NCBI GenBank assembly: GCA_023898465.1
Contig: CP060223.1
Location: 768,001 to 832,000 of the forward strand
Direction of reading: 5' to 3'
DNA length: 64,000 nt
Origin: Candidatus Nomurabacteria bacterium
GTDB lineage: Bacteria; Patescibacteriota; Patescibacteriia; HK-STAS-PATE-3
Part shown: positions 3,096 through 59,908 of the stretch, piece by piece
How positions within the stretch are numbered: position 1 is the stretch's first letter
Layout of the letters: each line of letters opens with the position of its first letter
Notes under the pieces: model-generated
Database searches by the model: none
Seen by the model: the letters and a program-made list of their open reading frames with translations, nothing else
What the model was told of the DNA's origin: nothing
Translations under genes and position numbers: made by a program

Positions 3096-3217
3096 ACGGT
3101 ATATATACTACACTAAAAGGCGATTTTTTATTTCAAAGCCTATTTGACACTCCAAAAAATGGGCAGTAGAGTGGACAAGCGATTCCACCACATCTAGCCG
3201 AAAGTAAGGAGGGCAAG

Positions 3218-3523
3218 ATGTCCTTGGTCGTTGTAACACATGATGGTAGCCTGCCATGCAACCGTGGAGGCACGGGTAGGCGTGTTGGCTACTTCTCGCC
3301 TGAATCGCGGATGTATTTCCCTCTGACCGGGGGCAGTGTCTACATCCCGATTCCTCCGCCACCGCCCAAACCTCCAAACTACTTCGAACTTCCGAGAACC
3401 ACCTGGCGTGACCGCTGCATCGAGTGTAATGGTCACACGAGCTGGAAGAGGAAGAAACTCGAAGGCGGCGTGCGTGAGGTCAAGGTCTGCGAAGAGTGTG
3501 GCAAGCTGATGCGTCCGTACTAG
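3218..3523 (+). CDS. small zinc-ribbon protein (CxxC-x17-CxxC), hypothetical
   Basis: GC-rich ORF preceded by an AAGGAGG Shine-Dalgarno; RCIECNGH...VCEECGK four-Cys ribbon; proline run PIPPPPPKPP. Confidence 0.4.
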   Translation: MSLVVVTHDGSLPCNRGGTGRRVGYFSPESRMYFPLTGGSVYIPIPPPPPKPPNYFELPRTTWRDRCIECNGHTSWKRKKLEGGVREVKVCEECGKLMRPY

Positions 3524-3535
3524 AGCGTCCGTGGA

Positions 3536-3567
3536 CCGCTTCTCAATCTGAGAGGCGGTCTTTTTTC
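3536..3567 (+). terminator. intrinsic terminator / REP-like hairpin (CCGCTTCTC..GAGAGGCGG + T-run)
   Basis: Stem CCGCUUCUC/GAGAGGCGG followed by UCUUUUUU, then TTGACA; near-identical to the unit at 4047-4087. Confidence 0.5.
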
Positions 3568-3643
3568 TTGACAGTGCAGCGTATTGTCGTTAAGGTGCTG
3601 GGTCGGAAACTGGACATTCACAAACGCAATGAAGGAGGGACTG

Positions 3644-4035
3644 TGTCATACGATCCAAACGCTTTTTTCCCGCCCTACATGAATTCGACCAACGAGGGTA
3701 ACCAGCATAGCGCCGGCATGCACGTGGTCGGGCTGCAGTTCTTCTTGGACGGCCTGATCATCGGCGGCAAGATCAACGCGCCACTCATCCCGATCACCGG
3801 AATGACTGACGAGGCCACGGCGAACGCGGTGAAAGCGCTCCAGCGCGAGCTCGGCATGAGCGACGTTGATGGCAACTTCGGCCAGGGTACCAGGGAAGCC
3901 CTGCTCCGTGCCACCAGCTTCAACTTCAACACGATCCCTGGATCGATCCGTACCATCCAGGGAATCTGGATCGACCCGGACGGAAATCTCAAGCCTTGGC
4001 CCCTGGCGTTCACCGACGATCTGCCCGGCGACTAG
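3644..4035 (+). CDS. peptidoglycan-binding (PG_binding_1) domain protein
   Basis: GAAGGAGGG then GTG at 3644 (ATG at 3679 is an alternative start). Motif TGMTDEATANAVKALQRELGMSDVDGNFGQGTREAL is typical of PG_binding_1. Confidence 0.5.
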
Positions 4036-4046
4036 GACCCACCCGC

Positions 4047-4084
4047 GCCGCCTCTTCTTTCACGGAGAGGCGGTCTTTTCTTTT
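4047..4084 (+). terminator. intrinsic terminator / REP-like hairpin, second copy
   Basis: CCGCCTCTTC...GAGAGGCGG followed by TCTTTTCTTTT; 21/24 nt identical to 3550-3573. Confidence 0.5.
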
Positions 4085-4110
4085 GACCTCGCAGCATCTT
4101 GGATGTATGT
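4082..4110 (+). promoter_or_regulatory. sigma70-like promoter upstream of the transposase (TTGACC-17-TATGTT)
   Basis: -35 TTGACC at 4082-4087, 17-nt spacer, -10 TATGTT at 4105-4110; the transposase start is about 37 nt downstream. Confidence 0.4.
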
Positions 4111-4146
4111 TACACACAGACAAAGGTGGCGCCTTAGGGTTACCTT

Positions 4147-4722
4147 TTGACCCAGCGCAGAATTTATCAAAACACATACCCATACCATCTCACCACGGTA
4201 ACGAAAAACCGACGGTGGGCATTTCGAGATGTGAAACTAGCATGGAAATTGCACCAGGCAATTCTTGGCGCGTGTTTTGTTAAAGGTTACACCGCGCTGG
4301 CATTTTGCATATTACCGGACCATATACATTTGTTGGTTTGGAAGCATATCCCAGCGCGGGTAGGAGAACCCACGCTGGGCCTGGATGAAATACAAACACA
4401 ATTATTATTCCCCGAAGCCCAGCGCGCGTTCTCTAACGTGCGCGATAACAACCATGATGACATTTCATACTTAATGAAATCAATAAAAGGCACCTTTGCT
4501 CGATCAATTTCCTCCGGCCCCATCTGGCAACCCAGCTTCAATTCCCGCATCGTCGACTCTGATCAACGCCTCTACAACACACTGCAGTATATTCAATATA
4601 ATTATCGTAAACATAAACTACCCGCACACTATGGCCAAGCACCATATACCTTTCTTAATATCCCAAAAAGCATTTACAACATTGACCAAAACCGGTTTTT
4701 CTCGTACGATGGCAGAGATTGA
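4147..4722 (+). CDS. IS200-like / REP-associated tyrosine transposase (HuH Y1 transposase, RAYT-like)
   Basis: HuH motif LPDHIHLLV; downstream Tyr-containing helix LQYIQYNYRKHKL resembles the YIxxNPxK helix of TnpA_IS200/RAYT; 191 aa, a typical size. Confidence 0.65.
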   Translation: MTQRRIYQNTYPYHLTTVTKNRRWAFRDVKLAWKLHQAILGACFVKGYTALAFCILPDHIHLLVWKHIPARVGEPTLGLDEIQTQLLFPEAQRAFSNVRDNNHDDISYLMKSIKGTFARSISSGPIWQPSFNSRIVDSDQRLYNTLQYIQYNYRKHKLPAHYGQAPYTFLNIPKSIYNIDQNRFFSYDGRD

Positions 4723-8223: not shown

Positions 8224-8351
8224 TAGTACTTACCAACACTGGCGTTGCAGGTCCGGAGGGTCGTCCGGACAGAGAAGGACATCGGCCGCGCTTGGCGAGA
8301 AGGAAGCGAGCTTCAATGCGAGTCTCACTCAAGCAACGACCGACGTCCATG

Positions 8352-8423
8352 TGCCGTGGGAGGGATTCGAACCCCCAACCTTCAGATTACGAGTCAGATG
8401 CTCTACCACTGAGCTACCACGGC
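8352..8423 (-). tRNA. tRNA-Thr (anticodon CGU)
   Basis: Hand-folded: acceptor GCCGTGG/CCACGGC, D-arm GCTCAGTGGTAGAGC, anticodon loop CUCGUAA, T-loop GGTTCGAATCC; one U-U mismatch in the anticodon stem. Confidence 0.7.
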
Positions 8424-8579
8424 AGCTGTGTTGCGGGTCCTCAGGGCCTGCATGCTCTTCCCAGCGTACTGGACACTTTGGGCTGCAACACAACTTTTTA
8501 AGGACAGGCCGGGAAAATCCCGGGGGTGTTTATCTATGCACCTCTCGGTGAACTGATGGTATTTCACCTGTCCAAGATG

Positions 8580-8650
8580 AGCGGGAGACGGGATTTGAAC
8601 CCGCGACCTTCCGCCAGAGGCGGCTGCTCTGCCAACTGAGCTACGCCCGC
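8580..8650 (-). tRNA. tRNA-like gene with degenerate anticodon arm (possible pseudogene, identity unresolved)
   Basis: Good acceptor, D-arm (GCTCAGTTGGCAGAGC) and T-arm (GCGGGTTCAAATCCCGT), but the region between them is about 2 nt short and folds as CCGCC-UCU-GGCGG rather than a 5-bp/7-nt anticodon arm. Confidence 0.4.
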
Positions 8651-8796
8651 AAAAAAGAACGGACTAAGAATGTAGCGTATCCCCAAAAAGCTGTCAACCC
8701 TGTACCAGGCTTGGTGCGAGGTCAACCCTATCGTTCGCGAACTACGGAATCAAGAAAAAGGGAGATGCCATCAATGATGAACATCTCCCGAAGATT

Positions 8797-8868
8797 TGGT
8801 ACCTCCTGGAATCGAACCAGGGTAACCCGATTTTCAGTCGAGCACTCTACCAACTGAGTTAAGGTACC
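8797..8868 (-). tRNA. tRNA-Phe (anticodon GAA)
   Basis: Acceptor GGTACCT/AGGTACC, D-arm ACTCAGTTGGTAGAGT, anticodon loop CUGAAAA, T-loop GGTTCGATTCC. Confidence 0.75.
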
Positions 8869-8956
8869 GCTAGAGCGTGGCGGAAAGGCGAAGGACTTTC
8901 ACCAACTCACTGATCAAGACCAGCGTGTCCTCGGGGACGCCTTTCCAGAACAGATG

Positions 8957-9028
8957 AGGCGGGTCAAGGATTTGAACCTCGGAATCGCGGATTTGAAGAC
9001 CGCTGCCTTACCACTTGGCTAACCCGCC
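8957..9028 (-). tRNA. tRNA with apparent UCA anticodon (Trp-like anticodon arm; would decode UGA/UGG)
   Basis: Acceptor GGCGGGT/ACCCGCC, anticodon arm GCGGU-CUUCAAA-UCCGC (compare canonical Trp CCGGU-CUCCAAA-ACCGG), T-arm CGAGGTTCAAATCCTTG. Genes in the window use TGA as a stop, so the anticodon assignment needs tRNAscan-SE. Confidence 0.5.
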
Positions 9029-9050
9029 TTTCAACCTATAAGTTAGAGAG

Positions 9051-9124
9051 GCGCCCTGGAAGGAATTGAACCTCCGACATCTGGGTCCATAGCCCAGCGC
9101 TCTTCCGACTGAGCTACAGGGCAC
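9051..9124 (-). tRNA. tRNA-His-like (G-1:C73 present) with an AUG rather than GUG anticodon triplet
   Basis: 8-bp acceptor including G-1 paired to C73 (a His identity element), D-arm GCTCAGTCGGAAGAGC, anticodon arm CUGGG-CUAUGGA-CCCAG, T-loop GGTTCAATTCC. A34 is unusual and may be a variant or sequence error. Confidence 0.5.
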
Positions 9125-9133
9125 AACAAACGG

Positions 9134-9206
9134 TAGCGCAAGCAGGATTCAAACCTACGTTTCCACACAGAGAATGTGGCGACCTAAACCACTAGTCGAT
9201 TGCGCC
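9134..9206 (-). tRNA. tRNA, Glu/Gln-like (anticodon loop UUCUCUG, CUC?)
   Basis: Acceptor GGCGCAA/TTGCGCT, Glu-type D-arm GACTAGTGGTTTAGGTC, anticodon stem CCACA/TGTGG, T-loop GGTTTGAATCC; position 37 is not a purine, so the identity is tentative. Confidence 0.45.
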
Positions 9207-9311
9207 GGCAAATAGATTGCGACAGACCCTCTTCCGAGAGAGTGACGGCTCATCCTGCTATGAAAGAGGCCATCACAAAATGGTAAGCAATGTACTACAC
9301 CTGATCTAATG

Positions 9312-9386
9312 CGGCGCTGACAGGATTTGAACCTGCGAAACACTCGGCTGACCGCCGAGCTGCCTTAACCACTAGACTACAGCGCC
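9312..9386 (-). tRNA. tRNA, Asp-like (anticodon GUC; position 33 reads G)
   Basis: Acceptor GGCGCTG/CAGCGCC, anticodon arm CUCGG-CGGUCAG-CCGAG, T-loop GGTTCAAATCC. Confidence 0.5.
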
Positions 9387-9427
9387 AAAAAAAGAGCTGT
9401 CCGATGGTACCCCGGAAAATTACTTAT

Positions 9428-9464
9428 GTCAAGAAACCCCGCCTCATCATTTGACAAGGCGGGG
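9428..9464 (-). terminator. intrinsic terminator after the TonB-like gene
   Basis: Minus strand: CCCCGCCTTGTCAAATGATGAGGCGGGG followed by TTTCTT. Confidence 0.5.
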
Positions 9465-9470
9465 TAACTA

Positions 9471-10118
9471 TCAATTCAGCGAGAAACGGAAGGGAATGAC
9501 TGTCCAGACGGCCACCGCCCTATCACGCTGCTTCGCCGGACTAAAGAGCCACTGGAGTGCCGCAGCACATGCTGACTGATTCATCGACTCGAGCACCTCA
9601 CTCTGCACCACACTCGCTGCATCAACCGCACCGGTCTCGGTAATATGCACGCGCACCATCACCAAACCTTCCGCACCAGCCTGACGAGCCAAGTCAGGAT
9701 AGACCGGAGCTACCCGATGAATGACCTGTGGCGCTGTATCATAGGCCACAAAAGTCTCGGGTATTCCACTGTCCTGTCCGCTCATCACAATTGGCGGAGC
9801 AAAGGGATCGTAGGTCGTAGGAGCCAGCGTTTCTTCCAGACTGGCCATCTCGCTGATCTCAGCCTCAGCCGGCAAGTCAGGTCGCTGCACTTCTTGCGGC
9901 GGAGGTGGAACCACGAAGTCCTCCATGAACTCCACCGCGGTCATCACGCGCTCATGCAACTGATAAGGATGCGGGACATAGGGCGGCGAAAACCTGGCGA
10001 GCAAGAACAAGAGGGCAGTTGCTACCAGAAAACTCCAGCCTATGTCACGCCAGTAGTGCTGCTTCAGTAGGTAATGCTCTGAGGCACGGAAGCTTTCCAA
10101 TCCGATCACAAAGCACAC
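9471..10118 (-). CDS. TonB-family protein (N-terminal TM, Pro-rich linker, TonB C-terminal domain)
   Basis: TM WSFLVATALLFLLARF; linker PPPPQEVQRPDLP; C-terminus VYPDLARQAGAEGLVMVRVHITETGAV...SEVLESMNQSACAAALQWLFSPA matches the TonB_C fold pattern. Confidence 0.6.
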   Translation of the reverse strand: MCFVIGLESFRASEHYLLKQHYWRDIGWSFLVATALLFLLARFSPPYVPHPYQLHERVMTAVEFMEDFVVPPPPQEVQRPDLPAEAEISEMASLEETLAPTTYDPFAPPIVMSGQDSGIPETFVAYDTAPQVIHRVAPVYPDLARQAGAEGLVMVRVHITETGAVDAASVVQSEVLESMNQSACAAALQWLFSPAKQRDRAVAVWTVIPFRFSLN

Positions 10119-10441
10119 TCCTTCTCAACCCCGGGAGGTGTATGTAGCTGCAAAGAACTGACCAGAGCTAGGGAGGCTGATGCACAGCTGCCATGCATCC
10201 GATACAGTTATCTCTAGTGTACCCTATTCGGGAATAAAGAAAAAACTCGGCCACACAGCGTCGCCGGCAAGTGGAAAGCAATAGCTGATAAACAGTACTA
10301 CCTTCACTTGAAGCTACTTGGTTTGCATAGGAGGGGTCGCATTCCGTTCGCAACTTACCGACGACGCCATACTGCCGAGCATAGCGAAGCCACTTTCACT
10401 ACCATGAACGTAACGGGAAAAAATAGCATGCATTTCCCACT

Positions 10442-37478: not shown

Positions 37479-37723
37479 ACTTCAGGCCACATTTGTTTGC
37501 CGTCCTGGTCAAAAAGCTTGATAGCATCCACCGGACAAGACTTCGCCGCTTCTAAAATCATCTCTTCTTCATCACCAATGGGATGCTCTTTATCGACAAA
37601 CTCAACTTTACCTTGACCATCGAGTTGGAAGGTCTTAGCCGCTAAAGCCACGCAAGAGGCCGCGCTAATGCAGGTTTCTTGATCTAGCTCAATCTTGCCG
37701 ATTTTTTTGTCCTTGTCTGCCAT
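37475..37723 (-). CDS. small ferredoxin-like protein (Cx5C...CP), first structural gene of the suf operon
   Basis: CISAASC...SCPVDAI cysteine pattern; 82 aa. Confidence 0.5.
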   Translation of the reverse strand: MADKDKKIGKIELDQETCISAASCVALAAKTFQLDGQGKVEFVDKEHPIGDEEEMILEAAKSCPVDAIKLFDQDGKQMWPEV

Positions 37724-37726
37724 AGG

Positions 37727-38137
37727 TTATGAGCTTACCTGAGTATGGAGTAACTTATCAAGTCGCATTTTGCTGAGCTTAGATTCCATTGCTTCTCGCA
37801 CCTGCACCCAAATATCATGCGTGGTACAAAAGTCCTGCCGAGGGCAACCCTGTGCGCTCCGTTCACAAGCCAGCACATCTAATTCATGCACCGCATGCAG
37901 TATTTCACCTACGTTAATTTCCTTGGGTGAACGGGTCAGACGATAGCCTCCCTGACTACCTCGGCTGCTCTCTACTAAACCAGCCTGACGTAAATATACC
38001 ATTAACTGTTCAGCATAGGTGTAAGGCACTCGCTCCTGCTCTGCGAGATTGCGCAAAGAAAGACTGGCTTGACCGTGCTGCCTGGCCAGACCGAGCATGA
38101 GAGCTAAGCCATAGTCACCTTTAGTAGAAAACTTCAT
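37727..38137 (-). CDS. Rrf2-family transcriptional regulator (IscR/SufR-like) heading the suf operon
   Basis: wHTH MKFSTKGDYGLALMLGLAR...LVESSRGSQGGYRL; cluster-ligand Cys in CERSAQGCPRQDFC. Confidence 0.8.
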   Translation of the reverse strand: MKFSTKGDYGLALMLGLARQHGQASLSLRNLAEQERVPYTYAEQLMVYLRQAGLVESSRGSQGGYRLTRSPKEINVGEILHAVHELDVLACERSAQGCPRQDFCTTHDIWVQVREAMESKLSKMRLDKLLHTQVSS

Positions 38138-38266
38138 ATCTGAGTAAAATACTAAGATATAAAAACTCGCCTGTCAACGTCTACTTTGACAAGCAGTGCC
38201 TGCAAAATCTATGCTACCCCCATACTCGTTCTTTCACACCCGTTCCCATGCAGGAAAGGAATACTC

Positions 38267-38911
38267 ATGGACGCTCTGATGACCAGCCTTGTGCAGGCAC
38301 CAATTCGCAAGAGTCGGCCGACCTGCGCTCGACGTCGATCTCACCGCTTCCAGCAACTACGTCATGGAACCCGACTTCGCCCTCTGGCAATCGCGCTCAA
38401 CCAACTCAACATCAGACCTTTCGTCAAGGCTGATGTGGAGAGATACAAGCGTGCACGTCGCGCTGAGTGCGAACCAACGCTTCGTCGAGATGCGCGCTTC
38501 AGGCGCTTCTTCCACATCAGCGCTAAGGTCGCCGCGATATTCGTGATAGTGTCTGCCATCTACTTGGCGGTACCTGGTCCGGCTCAATTCGCGGCGACTT
38601 GCTCGCTACTTGTTTCGTCGGTCTACCTGACTGCAAACCTCATCCTCGGCTGTCGCCTGCAGTTGCGAACTTACGTCCGCTGGCAGACCTGGAAAATCGA
38701 AACAGAGTGGTGCGCTTACCCAGGCGTACTTCCCGATCCTGTACAGCTACAGATCGCCAGGATCAAGGAGGTAGCACCGGGCGCTCGCTTCGAGGTCGAA
38801 GACCTCCGTTACAATACCGGACGGGTCTATGACCCACTCCTGTACGCGTGTCTGGATGAGGAACGCTTCTGCGTAGCAACTTGGCTAGGCAAGGAATGCC
38901 GAATCGCCTAA
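38267..38911 (+). CDS. hypothetical membrane protein (basic N-terminus, two TM helices, about 75-aa C-terminal domain), GC-rich island
   Basis: AGGAAAGG Shine-Dalgarno then ATG at 38267; about 59% GC versus about 48% backbone; no motif recognised. Confidence 0.45.
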   Translation: MDALMTSLVQAPIRKSRPTCARRRSHRFQQLRHGTRLRPLAIALNQLNIRPFVKADVERYKRARRAECEPTLRRDARFRRFFHISAKVAAIFVIVSAIYLAVPGPAQFAATCSLLVSSVYLTANLILGCRLQLRTYVRWQTWKIETEWCAYPGVLPDPVQLQIARIKEVAPGARFEVEDLRYNTGRVYDPLLYACLDEERFCVATWLGKECRIA

Positions 38912-39237
38912 GGCCACATTCGAGACCAGCTTCTCTCTTGAAGCTGGTCTTTCCTTATATGCTTGACAGTTTTTCTAGACCGTGCTAACTTATCCCGTTG
39001 TTCGTGACCGCATATGTAGTCCCGGACAACGTCAACCACTGGAAATCGGCGCATCATCGCGCCACGTCACAACGAATGGGAGGTATTCCCTCGATGCTGA
39101 CAAAACTCAAGCGTTGCCCGCGTAGGTATGCGAGCCTGGGTCGCCGGTCCCAGTAGCCCTCTCTCGCACGAGAGGAATCCAACTCGTCCTGCGCCGGGGC
39201 CTTCCACCGGCAATTACACCGTCGAAACGGACGAACC

Positions 39238-39276
39238 CCGGAGCCCGAAGACATCTGTCTGAGGGCTCCTTTTTCC
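39238..39276 (+). terminator. intrinsic terminator (GGAGCCC...GGGCTCC + TTTTT)
   Basis: Perfect 7-bp GC stem then T5, immediately upstream of a consensus promoter. Confidence 0.5.
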
Positions 39277-39277
39277 A

Positions 39278-39306
39278 TTGACACAAAGCGTATCGTCTGC
39301 TATATT
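39278..39306 (+). promoter_or_regulatory. near-consensus sigma70 promoter (TTGACA-17-TATATT) driving the three-paralogue operon
   Basis: TTGACA at 39278-39283, 17-nt spacer, TATATT at 39301-39306; first ORF starts at 39345 after GGAGGATGA. Confidence 0.55.
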
Positions 39307-39344
39307 CCCCGGTCTCACGCACCTGCACAATCAACGGAGGATGA

Positions 39345-39614
39345 ATGCGGAACGAAGACGCTGATGCAATGCACTTCCACTGGGGGATCACGAACTGCGT
39401 TGTCATCGACGTAGAAGAAAGGCCTAGAGCAAGTGCGGTACGCACTTTTGCTCAGGACAACCAAGCTACTTGTTCAGAGGGAAATGAAGTCCTGGTGCGA
39501 TGCACCTGCACTGAAATTCGACCTCAGCTACTTAGTGTGAGGAGGCTCCAGTCCTTTCTCACCGAACATCGTTCTGGTCATCCAATAAACTCGCCCAAAG
39601 AGGAGGGGGAATGA
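39345..39614 (+). CDS. small acidic Cys/His-motif protein, paralogue 1 of a tandem triplet (unknown family)
   Basis: 89 aa; shares NCVVI...VLVxCxC...FLxxHxxGHP with the two following ORFs; 4-nt overlap with the next ORF. Confidence 0.5.
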   Translation: MRNEDADAMHFHWGITNCVVIDVEERPRASAVRTFAQDNQATCSEGNEVLVRCTCTEIRPQLLSVRRLQSFLTEHRSGHPINSPKEEGE

Positions 39615-39889
39615 AAGCAGTCAACGCTGGTGAACACGGCAACGAGCACGTCCGGGTCTGCGTTGTCATCGAAGGAGATGAGAACCGAGATATTCTGGAA
39701 ATCTACGCTTTCGCTCGCGAGGTTCAGGCCATCGAGCCTGACGAGCCGCAAGACGAGGCTAGCGATGGAGAACGCGTCTTGATTTGTTGCGAATGTCCGG
39801 GCGGAGACAGACCTCGCTTCGCTGACCATGACCAACTGATCGCCTTTCTCCGCGATCACAACTCAGGCCACCACGCTTCGGTGGAATAG
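39611..39889 (+). CDS. small acidic Cys/His-motif protein, paralogue 2
   Basis: 92 aa; VCVVIEGDE...AFAREV...VLICCECPG...FLRDHNSGHH. Confidence 0.5.
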   Translation: MKAVNAGEHGNEHVRVCVVIEGDENRDILEIYAFAREVQAIEPDEPQDEASDGERVLICCECPGGDRPRFADHDQLIAFLRDHNSGHHASVE

Positions 39890-39904
39890 CCGGAAGGAGA
39901 CTAC

Positions 39905-40177
39905 ATGCATACCGTAGCCGCTACGGCACCATCGAAGCAAGTCAAGAACTGCGTCGTAATCCAGCTAGGAGAGCATCCCTCTCTAGAGACGCTCCTTGCC
40001 TTCGCGGCAGAGCATGCGGCCGTCAGAGTTGACGAGCAACCCGACGAACTCAACGACGGTGATCAGGTCCTGGTCACCTGCAATTGTCGGGACGGCTCAG
40101 GGCAGCAAATGCTCCTCACCGTGCCGGAGATTGAGCAGTTTCTCGAAAGTCACGCCTTGGGGCATCCCTCGGGGTAA
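39905..40177 (+). CDS. small acidic Cys/His-motif protein, paralogue 3
   Basis: 90 aa; NCVVIQLGE...AFAAEH...VLVTCNCRDG...FLESHALGHP. Confidence 0.5.
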   Translation: MHTVAATAPSKQVKNCVVIQLGEHPSLETLLAFAAEHAAVRVDEQPDELNDGDQVLVTCNCRDGSGQQMLLTVPEIEQFLESHALGHPSG

Positions 40178-40273
40178 ACTATGCACCTTCACCTAGAACC
40201 AGCTGACTCCGGTCTCCTGGTTCTTTCTTTTTCTGTCACTCTGGACTTGTTCCGAAGTCTCCTAAACTCAAAA

Positions 40274-41110
40274 CTATTTCAATAACTTCGCCTGTTGCTG
40301 CAACTCCTGTATCCGCTTCCGTTCTTGAGTAGTGAAACCGTGCATATCCGTTAAGGTTAACAACTCCTGTATCGTAACCACTCCGATTCGGAAAAGCTTC
40401 GATTTCATACTCGAGTCTAAACTCATGAGAATGGTGATAGGATAGACTTTTGTCTGCTCAATAAGCTTTTGTAAACTTTGATCAGCCGGATGACCCCAGC
40501 TAAGAATGTGCACGTTTGCGCAACGGGCGTATTTCATTGCTTCGGTGGTACATTTCGTATTTGTAACTAGCCAGGCATGCTGGACATGCTTCTTAGGGGC
40601 CAGGCGCTGTTCATCTTCTTTGGCTTGGAAAGCTTTTCCAATGTCATCGAAGCGTGCCTTAATATAGAGCGCCACCTTTACATCAGTCTTCATGCCGCGT
40701 CGATTATGATACTTGCACTCAAAAAGATGCAGCTGACCATTCTTGCGGGCTAAAATATCAACCTCGTGTGAAACACAGAAGCCGCGAACATATTGATCAG
40801 TTTGCACGCTGTACCCTAAGGCACTCAACAAACGCGCGACGTATTGTTCAAAAGGAAACCCGGTCGGACCAAGATTCATTATCGCTCGTTTCAAACCATA
40901 ACGCATGGCCTGCTTGGTATTGAGCTGGGCTAGTCGACTTTTTGCATAGGAAAAAATCGCTTGCGTCGACTTATGGAGTTTTGGCTTTAAACTTATTTCC
41001 TCAGCCAAACCTCGGGCCACTGTACCCGGCACTCCAGAATTTTGTAAAGACTGAATAAACTTCTCTGGCTGAAAAATCTGGTATTCACCGGATGATTTAC
41101 GGATGCGCAT
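40274..41110 (-). CDS. ATP-cone domain fused to Mrr-like restriction-endonuclease-fold domain
   Basis: N-terminus YQIFQPEKFIQSLQNSGVPGTVARGLAEEI (ATP-cone-like); core FEQYVARLLSALGYSVQTD...HEVDILA...LHLFECKYH matches the Mrr_cat/PD-(D/E)xK pattern. Confidence 0.55.
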   Translation of the reverse strand: MRIRKSSGEYQIFQPEKFIQSLQNSGVPGTVARGLAEEISLKPKLHKSTQAIFSYAKSRLAQLNTKQAMRYGLKRAIMNLGPTGFPFEQYVARLLSALGYSVQTDQYVRGFCVSHEVDILARKNGQLHLFECKYHNRRGMKTDVKVALYIKARFDDIGKAFQAKEDEQRLAPKKHVQHAWLVTNTKCTTEAMKYARCANVHILSWGHPADQSLQKLIEQTKVYPITILMSLDSSMKSKLFRIGVVTIQELLTLTDMHGFTTQERKRIQELQQQAKLLK

Positions 41111-41225
41111 AGGTATATTGTAGCACGTACTTAGGGTATAGTCTTGACATTTCTATAAAAATCGCTAAGGTCAGACTGCTTTTGGAGCATTGACATCAAC
41201 CGCTAGAACAGAGGAGGAGGAGTAG

Positions 41226-41468
41226 ATGACGCTCGCAGCTACTGAACTTAGGCCTGGGATGACGGTGCGGAATCTGCGGAGCGGTCTCACCGCTACGGTC
41301 ACCGAACCGCTGAGGGTCACGGGCGATCCGCTGCACGTACACGTCAGGAGGACGATGGAGGGAGGCGAGAGCAACGGTAAGACCAAGTTGACCACCTGGA
41401 GTCTCGACAACGTCGAGATCGTGCCGGTGGCTCAGGAGCCTGTCGACAACGATCGGCAGGTCGGCTAG
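41226..41468 (+). CDS. small GC-rich hypothetical protein with its own strong RBS and terminator
   Basis: GGAGGAGGAG Shine-Dalgarno 5 nt before ATG; 80 aa; about 62% GC. Confidence 0.4.
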   Translation: MTLAATELRPGMTVRNLRSGLTATVTEPLRVTGDPLHVHVRRTMEGGESNGKTKLTTWSLDNVEIVPVAQEPVDNDRQVG

Positions 41469-41477
41469 CCCTTCGCG

Positions 41478-41530
41478 CCCAATCCAAAAAATCCAGCTGA
41501 GCTGGACTAAGGATTGGGTGCTTTTTTTAT
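41478..41530 (+). terminator. intrinsic terminator (CCCAATCC...GGATTGGG + T-run), also 3' of the convergent peptidase gene
   Basis: 8-bp stem with inner TCCAGCTGAGCTGGA hairpin, then GCTTTTTTTATTTT. Confidence 0.5.
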
Positions 41531-42312
41531 TTTGCTGGGGTCACTACCAACATGACCTTTTGCCCATGGTCAACATCCCCGCCATTCCAATCGTGAATGG
41601 CATTCATAAGCACACTCTCTTCATAGACGTAGTCAGCTCCGTTGCGCGTACCAGGATCATTGGTAATAAAATGCCCATCCTTTGTGTAGCCCTTCACTAC
41701 TAAGGCATGATAAATCGGACCTGGTGAAGTGAAGTTTGGATTACCTAACTGGCGACCAGCAGCTAATACAATAATTGGATGGCCTTGTGCAATCTCCTGC
41801 TTAATAGCAAGAGCAGTCACCGCATCGCCGGTACTCACCTCTACTTCATAACCCCATAGGTCGCGAATGAAGCGTGCCGTCTCTTCGCCGGTTGTATCCT
41901 GGTAAAAACCATAGTGCTGCTCCTCAAAATCTACAATCGCTAAAATGGAACGATCAGCGTCTTCTTTCGTAAGCGGCTCATCCTCCCAATAACGTTGTAC
42001 CATAAGCGCAGCAGTTTCTTCACAGGCTTCTTGGTATGGTAAATCCCAATTGGCAAAAGGCGCCTGAGATGAAAAAGGCACGTCTAAATTTATCTCGTCC
42101 GGCAAAGTAACGACTGTGTTTGTAATTGCCGTATTGGTAGTTGTGCTATTACTGTTTTCCACGCTCGTATTCACGACTGCATTTTTCGCAGTAGGCTCTG
42201 GTAACTCAGGTGTAGAGATCGAATCCCAAGTATCACGAATCCAGCCGCGCTGCCAATAGCCAAGCCCGAGTAAAAGCACTAACGCGATAATAATGATGAT
42301 TCCCTTTTTCAT
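41527..42312 (-). CDS. secreted C39-like (Peptidase_C39_2) cysteine peptidase domain protein
   Basis: Signal peptide; DVPFSSQAPFANWDLPYQEACEETAALMVQRYW resembles the C39_2 N-terminal Cys region. Confidence 0.5.
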   Translation of the reverse strand: MKKGIIIIIALVLLLGLGYWQRGWIRDTWDSISTPELPEPTAKNAVVNTSVENSNSTTTNTAITNTVVTLPDEINLDVPFSSQAPFANWDLPYQEACEETAALMVQRYWEDEPLTKEDADRSILAIVDFEEQHYGFYQDTTGEETARFIRDLWGYEVEVSTGDAVTALAIKQEIAQGHPIIVLAAGRQLGNPNFTSPGPIYHALVVKGYTKDGHFITNDPGTRNGADYVYEESVLMNAIHDWNGGDVDHGQKVMLVVTPAK

Positions 42313-42375
42313 AGACGTGCGAGTATAGCAAGACTATTGTAGCACGTCAATGCCCAATGTCTGCTATTAAGGAGA

Positions 42376-48864: not shown

Positions 48865-49563
48865 ATGTCCAAGCCACTAATCATTGCCCACCGTGGCGCC
48901 TCAGGCTACGAACCAGAAAATACCCTTCGAGCTTTTCAAAGGGCATTTGCGCTACACGCAGACGGAATCGAGCTTGACGTCCATTGTTGCGGATCTGGGG
49001 AGCTTGTAGTAATCCATGACGCCACACTACAAAGGACTACTGATGGGCACGGCCGGATTGCCAATTGCACGCTCTCAGAGCTGCAAAAACTGGACGCCGG
49101 GGCTAAAGAAAAAATCCCAACTCTCGACAGCGTCTTAAAACACACACCGAGAGGTAGCTTTGTGAATATAGAATTAAAAGGGAAAGGAAGCGGTCGAGCG
49201 CTCGCTCAATTTCTTTTTAAAAAAACAATGCGATCTAAGCTCCTTATTTCTTCTTTTCATTTTTCTGAGCTGAACGACCTACGAGAGCAGGACCCAAAAA
49301 CACCTCTGGGCTTACTATCACTTTCTCCTCTTGGCATTTGGGAAAAAGCAAAGCAGCTCTCGGTAAGCTCAATTAATATCTACCATAGAAATTTAACGCA
49401 TAAAACAGTAGGTCGTGCTCATTCATATGGCTACAAGGTATTTGCCTGGACTGTAAATACACCTCGCGATATTAGAAGGATGCTGCAGCTAAAAGTAGAC
49501 GGGATAATCACAAACTATCCTGATCGCATACAAGAAATAGAAAAACCGCCCGCCTCATCCTGA
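48865..49563 (+). CDS. glycerophosphodiester phosphodiesterase family protein
   Basis: IIAHRGASGYEPENTLRAF...GIELDVH...LVVIHDATLQRTTDGHG. Confidence 0.8.
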   Translation: MSKPLIIAHRGASGYEPENTLRAFQRAFALHADGIELDVHCCGSGELVVIHDATLQRTTDGHGRIANCTLSELQKLDAGAKEKIPTLDSVLKHTPRGSFVNIELKGKGSGRALAQFLFKKTMRSKLLISSFHFSELNDLREQDPKTPLGLLSLSPLGIWEKAKQLSVSSINIYHRNLTHKTVGRAHSYGYKVFAWTVNTPRDIRRMLQLKVDGIITNYPDRIQEIEKPPASS

Positions 49564-49593
49564 TACAAGTTCAGGACAAGACGAGCGGTGATA

Positions 49594-49803
49594 TCAGCGA
49601 CGCGAGATGCGCACGTCGACCTGCTCGATGAGCACACCAATGCAGAAGAGAGCAAACAAGCCGACACAAAGCACGAGAAGGGCGTCGCATCCAGGCTCAG
49701 GTCCACCCATCTCCACCGAGGAGACGTAGACCTGATGGGCCGAGTACACGACGTACCCAAGACCCAGGAGAAGAAAGGTGCGGTACAGAATCTTCTTGAT
49801 CAT
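49594..49803 (-). CDS. small two-helix membrane protein, GC-rich islet next to 16S
   Basis: 69 aa, about 58% GC, hydrophobic helices. Confidence 0.35.
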   Translation of the reverse strand: MIKKILYRTFLLLGLGYVVYSAHQVYVSSVEMGGPEPGCDALLVLCVGLFALFCIGVLIEQVDVRISRR

Positions 49804-49812
49804 CTCACCTCC

Positions 49813-50211
49813 CTAAGGTGTAGCGGTTCGACGTCGTTGTAGCCACAGGATGGGCTGCATCCACAGCCAGCCGAAGAGGAACCAGCCAACAGCCAACCAG
49901 AAGATGAAGACAGCTGGAGGCCAGAAGTATGGAGCGAATGCGTACGTTAGCATCACGTCATTTGCTGCAGATGGGAATGCTTCCTCACCTACAGCATAGC
50001 GCTCAGCCGCCTCGTCTCCGTAGCGGTCGCGAACCTTGTCCATGACCTCAGCGGAAAACTGCGACGCAGTGAGGCTCGCTGCCTCCTGCACACACTCATG
50101 ATGCACGCGGTACGCATACATCGCGGACGGGATCGCCACCAGAATCGCGGCAATCACGTACCAAACACGCAAAGCAGTCCACTTTCGCATCTCGTCCTCC
50201 CATATTGCCAA
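49813..50211 (-). CDS. small membrane protein, GC-rich islet next to 16S
   Basis: 132 aa, two or three TM helices, Trp-rich; about 58% GC. Confidence 0.4.
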   Translation of the reverse strand: MAIWEDEMRKWTALRVWYVIAAILVAIPSAMYAYRVHHECVQEAASLTASQFSAEVMDKVRDRYGDEAAERYAVGEEAFPSAANDVMLTYAFAPYFWPPAVFIFWLAVGWFLFGWLWMQPILWLQRRRTATP

Positions 50212-50556
50212 GGTACAAAACTAACGTAAGAAGGTATCACTTTACGCGACTTTTGTCAATGCAAACACAGCCCGGGAGACATACTCCAAGGCTGTGTTAC
50301 CTGCTAACAGCTCAAACGTGATCAGTACAACGAATCGACTAACTACTTCGTCATAAATGTCCTCTTCTTTGAAGAAGGACGACGAAGGGTAGTTTACTAC
50401 CATCTGATGCTGAGCAACTGCCTATCACTCGGACAATCAATTGATTTGCCCGAATGGGCAGTCGGACAGACATCACGACCTACTAGGTCTCACATACTGC
50501 ACGATAGTGCAAATATATGTAGAGCCATCGTACCTTACGGCACGAAGATTCTCCCT

Positions 50557-52370: not shown

Positions 52371-52473
52371 GGAGGAAGGCAGATAGTCAAACTTGCTAAA
52401 AAGCCATAAAAAGCTTAGGTTTTAGATAGATCATTTGTAACTACCAATCATCATGAGAGAACGAGGGGGAGAC

Positions 52474-53211
52474 ATGTCCCGAGAAGTAGCCCGTACAGAG
52501 TCGAAAGAATACCCACCAGATCGCAATGGCAACATCATCCGAGAGGAGGTCAGCGAGCTGGCTGGCGGTGCCGTGCATCGTGAAGGCGGCATTGAAGAGG
52601 GTCCAGAAGCTGGACGCCGATGGAGCAAGTGGGATGAGAAGGAAGCGCGTCCGATCCCGGATGCACCAGCTGAGCTTCCGCTCTGGTATACCAGCGACCC
52701 GACGCAAATCAATGAGCTGCGGGCTCGGCGCTACGGCTTCATCACAGAAGCGTCGGAAAACGGTGGAGGTCCGTTAGCCGGCGACGCCTGGCTGCATGCC
52801 GAAGCTGACGTTGAAGTACTGCCAGTAGACCCTTTCTCGGCTGAGGCTCTCGAGCGAATGAGGGAGCTGAGCGCTGAGAAGCCTACACTCGTGATACAGG
52901 ATGCCGACTTCGCAACTACCTACCGTCGGCATGAGCATGAGGGTCAAATCCGAATCGAGATCACTCGAGTTCATGACAACGGCACCAAGTTCACACGCGG
53001 CGAACACATAACTGGAGACCGCAAAGGTTCCGGCTGGATCACGCGTGAAGCCCCAGTCGACACACAGATTGTCGACGGCCTCGAACTTCAAACCGATGAC
53101 GGCAGTCGAATCAATAGCCTCCAGGTCAAGAAATCGACTTTCAACTTCGGTACAGGGTCGCAGAACCGTCTCTACGTGGAATTCGTTGGGCGTCGGGAAA
53201 GCGAAAGCTAG
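52474..53211 (+). CDS. hypothetical acidic protein, GC-rich islet on the other side of the 16S
   Basis: About 60% GC; GAGGGGGAG Shine-Dalgarno before the ATG at 52474 (ORF open from 52453); no motif recognised. Confidence 0.4.
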   Translation: MSREVARTESKEYPPDRNGNIIREEVSELAGGAVHREGGIEEGPEAGRRWSKWDEKEARPIPDAPAELPLWYTSDPTQINELRARRYGFITEASENGGGPLAGDAWLHAEADVEVLPVDPFSAEALERMRELSAEKPTLVIQDADFATTYRRHEHEGQIRIEITRVHDNGTKFTRGEHITGDRKGSGWITREAPVDTQIVDGLELQTDDGSRINSLQVKKSTFNFGTGSQNRLYVEFVGRRESES

Positions 53212-59136: not shown

Positions 59137-59511
59137 TTGATCACTCAAGTGCAAGAACAGATTGACTCCCTGAGTTCAGCTCTAGGGGTCGCGGATGAAG
59201 AGCAGCGTCAAAAGGTGGCGTCGATCGTACGCACCTGCAACGAATGGATGGACCTCATCGAGAGTGGAACCACCAAGGAGAGAGGAGATTCCATCGAGAT
59301 CAGTCTCCAGGGCCTAACCGAGGCCATCACTTGTCTCCGCGCCAGAATCCCGGAACTGGCAAAGAGGTCGAATCGCCGTCCCAGAGCGGTCCGGCTATCT
59401 CGCTTTCTGCGCCTCCGTACTACGAACGGCCAACTGATCGAAGCAATGTACAACGATGTGGCCTGTCTGATCAGACAAGCCAATCTGCCGAGTGCTTCTC
59501 TGGCCGCCTGA
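59137..59511 (+). CDS. small GC-rich hypothetical protein
   Basis: AAGGAG Shine-Dalgarno then TTG at 59137 (ORF open from TTG at 59110); about 57% GC; no motif. Confidence 0.35.
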   Translation: MITQVQEQIDSLSSALGVADEEQRQKVASIVRTCNEWMDLIESGTTKERGDSIEISLQGLTEAITCLRARIPELAKRSNRRPRAVRLSRFLRLRTTNGQLIEAMYNDVACLIRQANLPSASLAA

Positions 59512-59517
59512 AGCATA

Positions 59518-59551
59518 GCGGACATCAGCCATCCTGGTGTCCGCTTTTCTA
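59518..59551 (+). terminator. intrinsic terminator (GCGGACA...TGTCCGC + TTTTCT); a second hairpin at 59561-59591
   Basis: 7-bp stem, 13-nt loop, T-run; the second hairpin is AATGCCA...TGGCATT + TTTTT. Confidence 0.5.
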
Positions 59552-59908
59552 TCCGAAAGAAATGCCACCGCACGAGACGATGGCATTTTTGGGAAACGTA
59601 GACCCGTCCTTGTCTAGGCCCTGACCTGATCGATCAGCCGATGGTAGCTGAGCAACCTCCTGTGAAATCCGCGATCACCTCGCGAAGCTTCCCAGGTGAG
59701 ACCCCTCACAACCTTGTCGTTGCGATCCAGAATGGATCGCGTCCTCCCCGGCGTCATCCCTGACTTTGCCTTGGGCCTAGCGCTATTGGACTTGTTGGGC
59801 ATAGTCCCCAACCCCCATATGCTACCCATCAACCCTATTGTTGATGTTAGTATTAAAATAAACCAATCTTAGGAATTGGTAAAGTATTCACTTCCCACAG
59901 GAAAACGC

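Follow-up and report, generated by a model that had tools for sequence, protein, structure and literature searches.

Within a 64,000-nucleotide window of the genome of a Candidatus Nomurabacteria bacterium (contig CP060223.1, positions 768,001 to 832,000), a preliminary description took the span 38186-41535 to be a single horizontally acquired conflict or defence locus with a nuclease as its effector. Here, we show that this span (locus tags H6760_04030 to H6760_04045) is not one island. Three independent things lie side by side: a strain-variable islet, which contains the orphan membrane-protein gene ORF1, a structured spacer of about 290 nt and an operon of three small Cys/His-containing paralogues (P1, P2 and P3); a resident nuclease gene; and a resident GC-rich orphan gene, ORF80. 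A related strain, base composition, selection and the context of a nuclease orthologue all contradict the single-locus view. As for P1-P3, our best guess from their sequences is that they are small metal-binding proteins that act as binders or in an immunity-like role. We give this whole explanation, with an islet, two resident genes and P1-P3 as binders, a probability of about 50%. A 100% identical sequence of the locus is also found in independent assemblies (Logan SRR12358675 and SRR23493594, ENA ERZ28655045), so the arrangement is not an assembly chimera.

The extent of the islet emerges from a comparison of three strains: that of the window, its sister strain in SRR17818317 (contigs L006 and L007), and a relative in Logan SRR32105342 (L008). 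The relatives were recovered via cluster look-ups. By blastn, L008 aligns with the window over 37712-38178 on the left (the Rrf2 gene and its promoter; 80.5% identity) and over 40175-41527 on the right (a terminator, the nuclease gene and ORF80; 86%). About 7-12 nt take the place of everything in between, and Rrf2 lies directly beside the nuclease gene. The sister strain contains the block, with ORF1, P2 and P3 at 90-91% DNA identity. Being absent from one relative and present in the other, the block therefore varies between strains. Its left edge is exact and abuts the upstream side of the -35 hexamer in the divergent rrf2-suf promoter; this hexamer makes a palindrome with the TTGACA of ORF1's own promoter, at the block edge. 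The block is thus intergenic, between the rrf2-suf promoter and the terminator at 40195-40224. No integrase, transposase or other mobility gene is present in the 37-43 kb part of the window, no direct or inverted (att-like) repeats mark the block borders, and the nearest tRNA genes, as potential targets, are more than 10 kb away. Of the acquired island first proposed, what stands is 38179-40169, which is atypical in composition and variable among close relatives; the nuclease gene and ORF80 fall outside it and are present in L008.

Base composition divides the span along similar lines. A uniform GC content of 58-60% had been attributed to the segment, but the full span has 52.6%, compared to 48.4% for the remainder of the window. 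Only ORF1 (57%), P2 (56%), P3 (58%) and ORF80 (62%) are GC-rich; P1 has 51.5% and the nuclease gene 45%. Nor is high GC confined to this span, as nine other stretches of the window reach at least 55%. At third codon positions, GC (GC3) ranges from 0.50 to 0.66 among the genes of the block and reaches 0.78 in ORF80, versus 0.42-0.48 in flanking housekeeping and backbone genes. Translation signals differ as well. No Shine-Dalgarno-like 4-mer precedes 29 of the 37 window open reading frames (ORFs) of at least 200 aa, and a match of at least 5 nt is seen in only three of the 37, ORF1 among them. All five GC-rich orphan genes (ORF1, P1, P2, P3 and ORF80) have matches of 5-6 nt, against 2 of 36 other long ORFs (p ~3e-5, a hypergeometric estimate in which backbone starts are taken as the first ATG). 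The 16S rRNA of the window has a normal CCUCC anti-Shine-Dalgarno sequence. By both composition and translation signals, then, the genes of the block look foreign.

The nuclease gene is a conserved resident, independent of the block. L008 encodes it with 97.5% amino-acid and 91% coding-sequence identity in the absence of the block. Its GC content (0.45) and GC3 (0.48) are at backbone level, and the ratio of nonsynonymous to synonymous substitution rates (dN/dS) is 0.021 versus L007 and 0.031 versus L008, indicative of strong purifying selection. In a metagenome-assembled genome of another member of the Patescibacteria (locus L005), a 50%-identical orthologue overlaps the start of a polyprenyl synthase gene, which is followed by a UppS gene, and no P-family gene lies within 10 kb.

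The protein had been described as a fusion of an ATP-cone with a restriction-endonuclease fold, and the second half of this assignment proves sound. Mrr_cat scores above the Pfam cut-off (28.5 bits vs 21, E 1.7e-6), and residues 89-252 align to PDB entry 1Y88 (AF1548) with an E of 6e-26 by phmmer. In this alignment the PD-(D/E)xK residues are intact: the motif E116-x-D118...E131-x-K133, as HEVD118 and FE131-C-K133, pairs with EID and ECK of 1Y88. For the C-terminal domain, Pfam AF1548-like_C gives E-values of 0.14 (window protein) and 0.0022 (orthologue). For the N-terminal 85 residues, ATP-cone (PF03477) reaches 12.8 bits (E 0.18) in the window protein and 23.8 bits (E 6.9e-5) in the 50%-identical orthologue, the latter just under the cut-off of 25.8. 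It is the only Pfam match for either N-terminal fragment, and a PDB profile search retrieved no ATP-cone structure. Because the window score is below threshold and the orthologue near it, we use the label "ATP-cone-like" only, which seems reasonable, not demonstrated. Relative to AF1548, the window nuclease shares the E-x-D...E-x-K motif and the C-terminal domain and differs by its extra N-terminal domain of about 85 aa, ATP-cone-like below the Pfam threshold. A literature search on AF1548 and on ATP-cone plus Mrr yielded nothing useful, and to our knowledge the biochemical function of the AF1548 family is uncharacterised. An exact 13-nt repeat, TATTGTAGCACGT, occurs at 41116-41128 and 42335-42347, upstream of the nuclease and Peptidase_C39_2 genes. 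Read on the minus strand it gives TGcTACAAT, an extended -10 element, and the nuclease mRNA is predicted to be nearly leaderless.

ORF80 is likewise independent of the block, since it is present in L008. It is present in L007 too. The ribosome-binding site noted at the outset, GGAGGAGGAG, was confirmed, as was its terminator, which turns out to be bidirectional. The L008 orthologue (825-1133) is 59% identical, with a dN/dS of 0.45; its stop codon position is lost and the frame, now 102 aa, runs into the terminator region but stays GC-rich. ORF80 evolves fast. The 5.8-billion-cluster protein collection (90% identity clusters), which was queried with ORF80, ORF1 and a P1-P3 profile, holds no ORF80 homologues beyond the lineage. 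None were found among IMG/VR proteins either, or in Pfam, PADLOC, PHROGs and NCBIfam, against which all six proteins (ORF1, P1, P2, P3, the nuclease and ORF80) were scanned.

Within the islet, P1-P3 are of particular interest. They had been presented as three translationally coupled, acidic and divergent paralogues with shared motifs. This is largely correct: pairwise protein identity is 33-36% (46-49% for DNA), isoelectric points (pI) are 4.6-5.5, net charge is -4 to -13, and P1 and P2 overlap by ATGA. P2 and P3 are separated by 15 nt, which contain the ribosome-binding site GGAAGGAG. Invariant columns among the three comprise C-V-V-I, E, F-A, A, C-x-C, F-L, H and G-(x)-H, and the C, CxC, H and H positions are invariant in six sequences of the family. 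No fourth paralogue or pseudogene was found in the spacer, elsewhere in the window or in the fetched loci. The operon has the near-perfect promoter originally described, which follows an intrinsic terminator; between these elements, however, the earlier account overlooked a second terminator and the structured spacer.

The paralogues could not be placed in any family at the outset, and this is still so after searches of Pfam, PADLOC, PHROGs, NCBIfam, PDB and BFVD. A word-indexed protein search with the P1-P3 profile returned the three window proteins and nothing else. When 1.84 billion cluster representatives were searched exhaustively by profile, a sole true outside homologue was added, P0004 (94 aa, E 8e-14), with the same motifs. 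Neither P1-P3 nor P0004 has a Pfam or NCBIfam match at E up to 1. P0004 is encoded on a GC-rich (~55%) ENA contig (L004 1-604), where the gene follows a terminator-like hairpin and the ribosome-binding site GAGGAGGAGGA. A further ribosome-binding site, GGGGAGGAG, lies 3' of the gene at the contig end, and for this reason P0004 may head a tandem array too; as the contig is only 604 bp, it provides no genomic context. A fifth match, the eukaryotic immunoglobulin-repeat protein P0005, was discarded as spurious, its repeated VTCESRGGDPPS segments mimicking VLVxCxCxxGxRP. A degenerate DNA motif pattern that recovers all three paralogues and P0004 in a local control found no match in JGI metagenomes or IMG/VR. 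The IMG/VR protein scan was empty for the family, as were blastn and tblastn against INPHARED phages and PLSDB plasmids. In PDB sequence and profile searches the best match was Atg31 (E 0.07), judged spurious, and nothing was significant for the P family or for ORF80. By these searches, the P family is extremely rare and outside any known family.

An AlphaFold2 model of P3 from five sequences has a mean predicted local distance difference test score (pLDDT) of 78 and a predicted template-modelling score of 0.70, with the secondary structure beta(2-5), beta(15-20), alpha(27-36), beta(54-60), beta(68-72), alpha(73-84). It has no structural match in PDB or among the viral structures of BFVD. For P1, a model from three sequences (pLDDT 54) likewise gave an empty Foldseek search against PDB. 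We infer that P1-P3 are small cytoplasmic alpha/beta proteins. Judging by topology only, a C2H2-type site could form where C59-x-C61, at a strand end, meets H83/H87, the His pair of an H-x2-G-H motif that follows the last helix; C16 would be buried in the first strand. Such a metal site, probably for Zn, would stabilise P1-P3, to judge from the invariant residues and the predicted topology.

Comparison with the sister strain indicates purifying selection on ORF1, P2 and P3. Their frames are intact, and dN/dS is 0.36 for ORF1 (against L006), 0.23 for P2 and 0.34 for P3. One member of the array nevertheless stands out. P3 has 95% DNA and 92% protein identity with its sister-strain counterpart (dS 0.11) and the nuclease 94% and 99% (dS 0.29); for P2 (39611-39889 against L007 39-317) the corresponding values are 77% and 69%, with a dS of 0.81. 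P2 alone shows this excess divergence, which is sharply bounded; gene conversion with P1 or P3 as donor was considered and does not account for it. The pattern looks like allelic replacement or accelerated turnover of a single array member. Tandem immunity genes, with their divergent paralogues and recombination, show the same pattern (PMC9484751, PMC12247911).

ORF1, described from the first as a membrane protein, indeed contains two stretches predicted to be hydrophobic membrane helices (about residues 84-104 and 108-129). They form a hairpin that separates an Arg-rich N-terminal region from a C-terminal domain of some 80 aa that contains Cys. The protein is strongly basic (pI 10.1, charge about +17). 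Its start at ATG 38267 is backed by the ribosome-binding site AGGAAAGGA, and the first 34 codons differ from those of L006 by synonymous changes only. A Tat or Sec signal was rejected by inspection. Like the P family, ORF1 is an orphan: the 5.8-billion-cluster collection has homologues only from the same lineage, and neither a family match nor a toxin domain was found in Pfam, PADLOC, PHROGs or NCBIfam; ORF80 likewise showed no toxin domain. A scan of JGI metagenomes with the ORF1 alignment gave zero matches, the IMG/VR protein scan was also empty, and sequence and profile searches of PDB found nothing significant. Profile-profile comparison revealed no relationship between ORF1 and the P family.

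The ORF1 unit and the P1-P3 operon are two insulated transcription units. Four hairpin-plus-U terminators (38922-38951, 39240-39269, 40195-40224 and 41475-41521) fold strongly, with z-scores of -4.6 to -6.8, and the second of these, with its U-tract, forms the 3' end of the spacer. Against shuffled sequences, the spacer as a whole has a folding z-score of -5.3; its opposite strand reaches -2.5 and a coding control -3.15. Inside it lies a mini-ORF of 20 aa (39094-39156) that has the ribosome-binding site GGGAGG. A search of Rfam with 38985-39280 gave nothing below E = 1 and no gathering-level match in the region. In the sister strain, 38985-39024 (up to the end of L006), plus 35 nt upstream that include the TTGACA at 38956, is about 95% conserved, compared to about 90% for ORF1. 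The spacer may be a new small RNA or leader within the islet.

Table 1. Coordinates of the islet, its elements and the adjoining resident genes in the window.
Feature	Position	Strand	Description	Basis or remark
Strain-variable block	38179..40169	.	1,991 bp, 55.7% GC	blastn and pairwise alignment of L008 with the window
Promoter-like site for ORF1	38186..38215	+	TTGACA-18-TATGCT	back-to-back with the -35 of the divergent rrf2-suf promoter, at the left block edge
ORF1	38267..38911	+	orphan 214-aa basic protein	ORF list, dN/dS
ORF1 intrinsic terminator	38922..38951	+	12-bp stem, -21 kcal/mol	fold
Structured spacer	38985..39280	+	GC-rich, possibly RNA	fold z-score
Sigma-70 promoter ahead of P1-P3	39278..39306	+	TTGACA-17-TATATT, TG extended -10	11/12 consensus positions
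P1	39345..39614	+	Cys/His paralogue, 89 aa, pI 5.5	
P2	39611..39889	+	92 aa, pI 4.6	start overlaps P1 stop
P3	39905..40177	+	90 aa, pI 4.6	AlphaFold2 model
Terminator 3' of P3	40195..40224	+		outside the variable block; conserved in L008
ATP-cone-like/Mrr gene	40274..41110	-	ATP-cone-like N-terminus, Mrr_cat PD-(D/E)xK domain, AF1548-like C-terminal domain	not in the variable block
ORF80	41226..41468	+	lineage-specific orphan, 62% GC, GC3 0.78	in all three strains
Bidirectional terminator	41475..41521	.	common to ORF80 and the convergent Peptidase_C39_2 gene	

How might the islet function? Most likely, it would be an accessory conflict or host-interaction cassette and not a housekeeping locus. 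From the promoters, ORF1 is predicted to be a weakly promoted membrane protein, and the P1-P3 operon to be promoted strongly and constitutively. We think it most likely that P1-P3 bind a partner stoichiometrically and that each of them would neutralise a different variant of it. The array would then resemble an orphan immunity or antitoxin array, with either ORF1 or an incoming exogenous toxin as the partner. If P1-P3 are indeed binders or immunity-like, they would offer a first view of how ultra-small episymbiotic bacteria of the candidate phyla radiation (CPR) protect themselves in conflict, as well as a novel small fold with Cys and His residues. If not, the islet is a strain-variable set of orphan genes of the ordinary kind, of moderate interest and by no means extraordinary.

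A number of observations weigh against the proposed function or the acquisition of the islet. No toxin, secretion-system or mobility gene was detected in or beside the block, where the neighbours are Rrf2, the nuclease and Peptidase_C39_2. None of P1-P3 matches a known immunity (Pfam Imm*, SUKH) or antitoxin family, and ORF1 and P1-P3 are separate transcription units. The dN/dS analysis covers ORF1, P2, P3, the nuclease and ORF80, the genes with a sequenced allele from another strain. Finally, the presence/absence polymorphism of the block is clear, but the evidence on the direction of the event, gain or loss, points both ways. L008 keeps the plus-strand terminator and possibly the last few P3 codons (CxCTCG..GG..TAA), and because of these remnants there is a hint of deletion in L008 rather than recent insertion. 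The foreign-looking composition of the block favours gain over loss; composition alone is no proof of recent transfer, however, because the GC-rich orphan ORF80 persists long in the lineage. The idea of an immunity cassette is, on balance, neither supported nor excluded.

The closest known systems are the tandem immunity arrays of polymorphic toxins. They include strings of EsaG and TsaI genes from type VII secretion (PMC9484751) and, in clusters acquired for interbacterial defence, orphan immunity genes of type VI systems (PMC12247911, PMC10470768). P1-P3 are like these in being head-to-tail, strain-variable arrays of small divergent paralogues (33-36% identity here), in having one member, P2, with a sharply divergent allele between sister strains, and in strong constitutive expression, which for P1-P3 is predicted from the promoter. 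They differ in that no toxin gene or secretion system is nearby, in matching no described immunity family, and in having no integrase or mobile-element backbone. The host also differs, being a member of the CPR/Patescibacteria, and the invariant Cys and His residues of P1-P3 point to a metal site, a feature atypical of immunity proteins. In a more ambitious version of the immunity reading, P1-P3 and P0004 would constitute an undescribed metal-binding (CxC...H...H) family with a new fold and would provide an episymbiotic CPR bacterium with an orphan array of immunity or anti-toxin proteins, expressed beside a new structured RNA of ~290 nt. We consider this combination unlikely. If true, it would be the first evidence in Patescibacteria of an immunity repertoire against interbacterial antagonism or a host.

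As an islet, the block has much in common with known genomic islands and islets: atypical GC, GC3 and ribosome-binding-site usage, a clean presence/absence boundary, and an intergenic position between divergent and convergent genes. It departs from genomic islands in its size of only 2 kb and in the lack of an integrase, transposase, tRNA, direct repeats or detectable donor. With small Cys/His zinc-binding domains and A-type Fe-S carriers (C-x(n)-C-G-C), the P family shares a C...CxC...H...(G)H arrangement in a domain of ~90 aa, but has no sequence or profile match to them. Unlike the knuckles or ribbons of small zinc domains, the ligands span ~70 residues in a beta-alpha-beta-beta-alpha scaffold.

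Among the alternatives, the one that survives best is that the block is what remains of a phage or another mobile element and contains moron or anti-defence genes, the acidic proteins serving as DNA mimics or anti-restriction factors. Foreign-looking GC and Shine-Dalgarno usage, small acidic paralogues behind a consensus promoter with terminators on either side, and extreme orphans of the kind typical of phage genes would all fit. Set against this, the borders carry no integrase, att repeats or tRNA, and no relatives are found in IMG/VR, INPHARED, PLSDB, PHROGs or BFVD. This origin is improbable, in our view.

It is also conceivable, though somewhat harder to credit, that the block is a toxin-antitoxin or addiction-like module in which ORF1 is a membrane-damaging toxin neutralised by the acidic P1-P3. 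The charges of the two are complementary (about +17 for ORF1, -4 to -13 for P1-P3), the genes come and go jointly as a single block, and the P1-P3 promoter is strong and that of ORF1 weaker. Yet two terminators and the 290-nt spacer intervene between the units, a single toxin would not ordinarily have three antitoxin paralogues, and ORF1 is under ordinary purifying selection. Nor does the module show similarity to known membrane toxins, holins or SLATT domains in Pfam, PADLOC or PHROGs.

A role for P1-P3 as metallochaperones or Fe-S-related carriers that serve the adjacent rrf2-suf operon is very unlikely. Such a role is brought to mind by the invariant residues (three Cys and two His), by the abutment of the block on the rrf2-suf promoter, and by a C...CxC spacing that superficially recalls the C...CGC motif of A-type carriers. 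But P1-P3 are on the strand opposite suf, with their own promoter and terminators, are foreign-looking in composition, and are absent from L008, which retains rrf2. They have no Pfam or NCBIfam match to the Fe-S_biosyn, NifU, Nfu or BolA models, and their predicted alpha/beta fold is unlike the beta-rich IscA fold. A separate suggestion, prompted by the neighbouring Peptidase_C39_2 gene, was that P1-P3 might be precursors of ribosomally synthesized and post-translationally modified peptides. We rejected it because conservation spans the full length, including the C-terminus, with no leader/core split, and because the peptidase gene belongs to the backbone and is also found in L008.

We regard as more doubtful still the original proposal, in which the whole of 38186-41535 is one acquired defence locus, with the ATP-cone/Mrr protein as a nucleotide-sensing effector and P1-P3 as immunity or regulatory proteins. 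It draws on the adjacency and convergence of the genes, on the intact PD-(D/E)xK residues and ATP-cone-like N-terminus of the nuclease, and on weak PADLOC matches of the nuclease, which concern only the generic nuclease domain of CARF-PD-(D/E)xK models (E 7.7e-6). The retention of the nuclease by L008 without ORF1 or P1-P3 largely refutes it. The nuclease gene moreover has backbone GC and a nearly leaderless, backbone-type promoter that shares its 13-nt -10 element with the C39 peptidase gene, its dN/dS is 0.02-0.03, and the L005 orthologue resides in a polyprenyl synthase/UppS operon with no paralogue within 10 kb. PADLOC (PADLOC-DB v2), suggested initially as a check of the island, finds no system, and ORF1, P1-P3 and ORF80 have no match in it at E up to 1. 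Adjacency and a GC shift are thus insufficient to define a defence island, and here the nuclease is a conserved resident. Lastly, we give next to no credence to the notion that the GC-rich ORFs are spurious, the foreign DNA being non-coding: GC-rich DNA does yield long chance ORFs on both strands, and the genes here have almost no homologues, but selection tests contradict it (dN/dS 0.23-0.45, no frameshifts), motifs are kept among paralogues with only 46-49% DNA identity, every start has a strong Shine-Dalgarno sequence, and P0004 independently carries the same motifs.

The genome is dotted with GC-rich, strong-Shine-Dalgarno orphan genes on a backbone mostly without such signals. The source of these genes, absent from 15 billion public proteins, is a question in itself. 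Other GC-rich patches of the window (55-63%) lie at 3151-4200, 9401-10200, 49551-50300, 52451-53100 and 59151-59850, and suggest repeated small acquisitions across the genome. The first contains two ORFs, one of 101 aa with a Zn-ribbon-like motif (3218-3523) and one of 179 aa; a further ORF next to these (4147-4722) by eye resembles an IS200/Y1-type transposase. An ORF at 9471-10118, also in a GC-rich patch, resembles a TonB C-terminal domain by eye, and one patch adjoins the 16S rRNA gene (52453-53211). Separately, ARAGORN finds a dense array of seven tRNA genes at 8351-9386 on the minus strand. Two of these have unusual anticodons: a tRNA-His with ATG (9050-9123) and a 73-nt tRNA annotated as tRNA-SeC (selenocysteine) with TCA (8956-9028), which may be a UGA-reading, suppressor-like tRNA.

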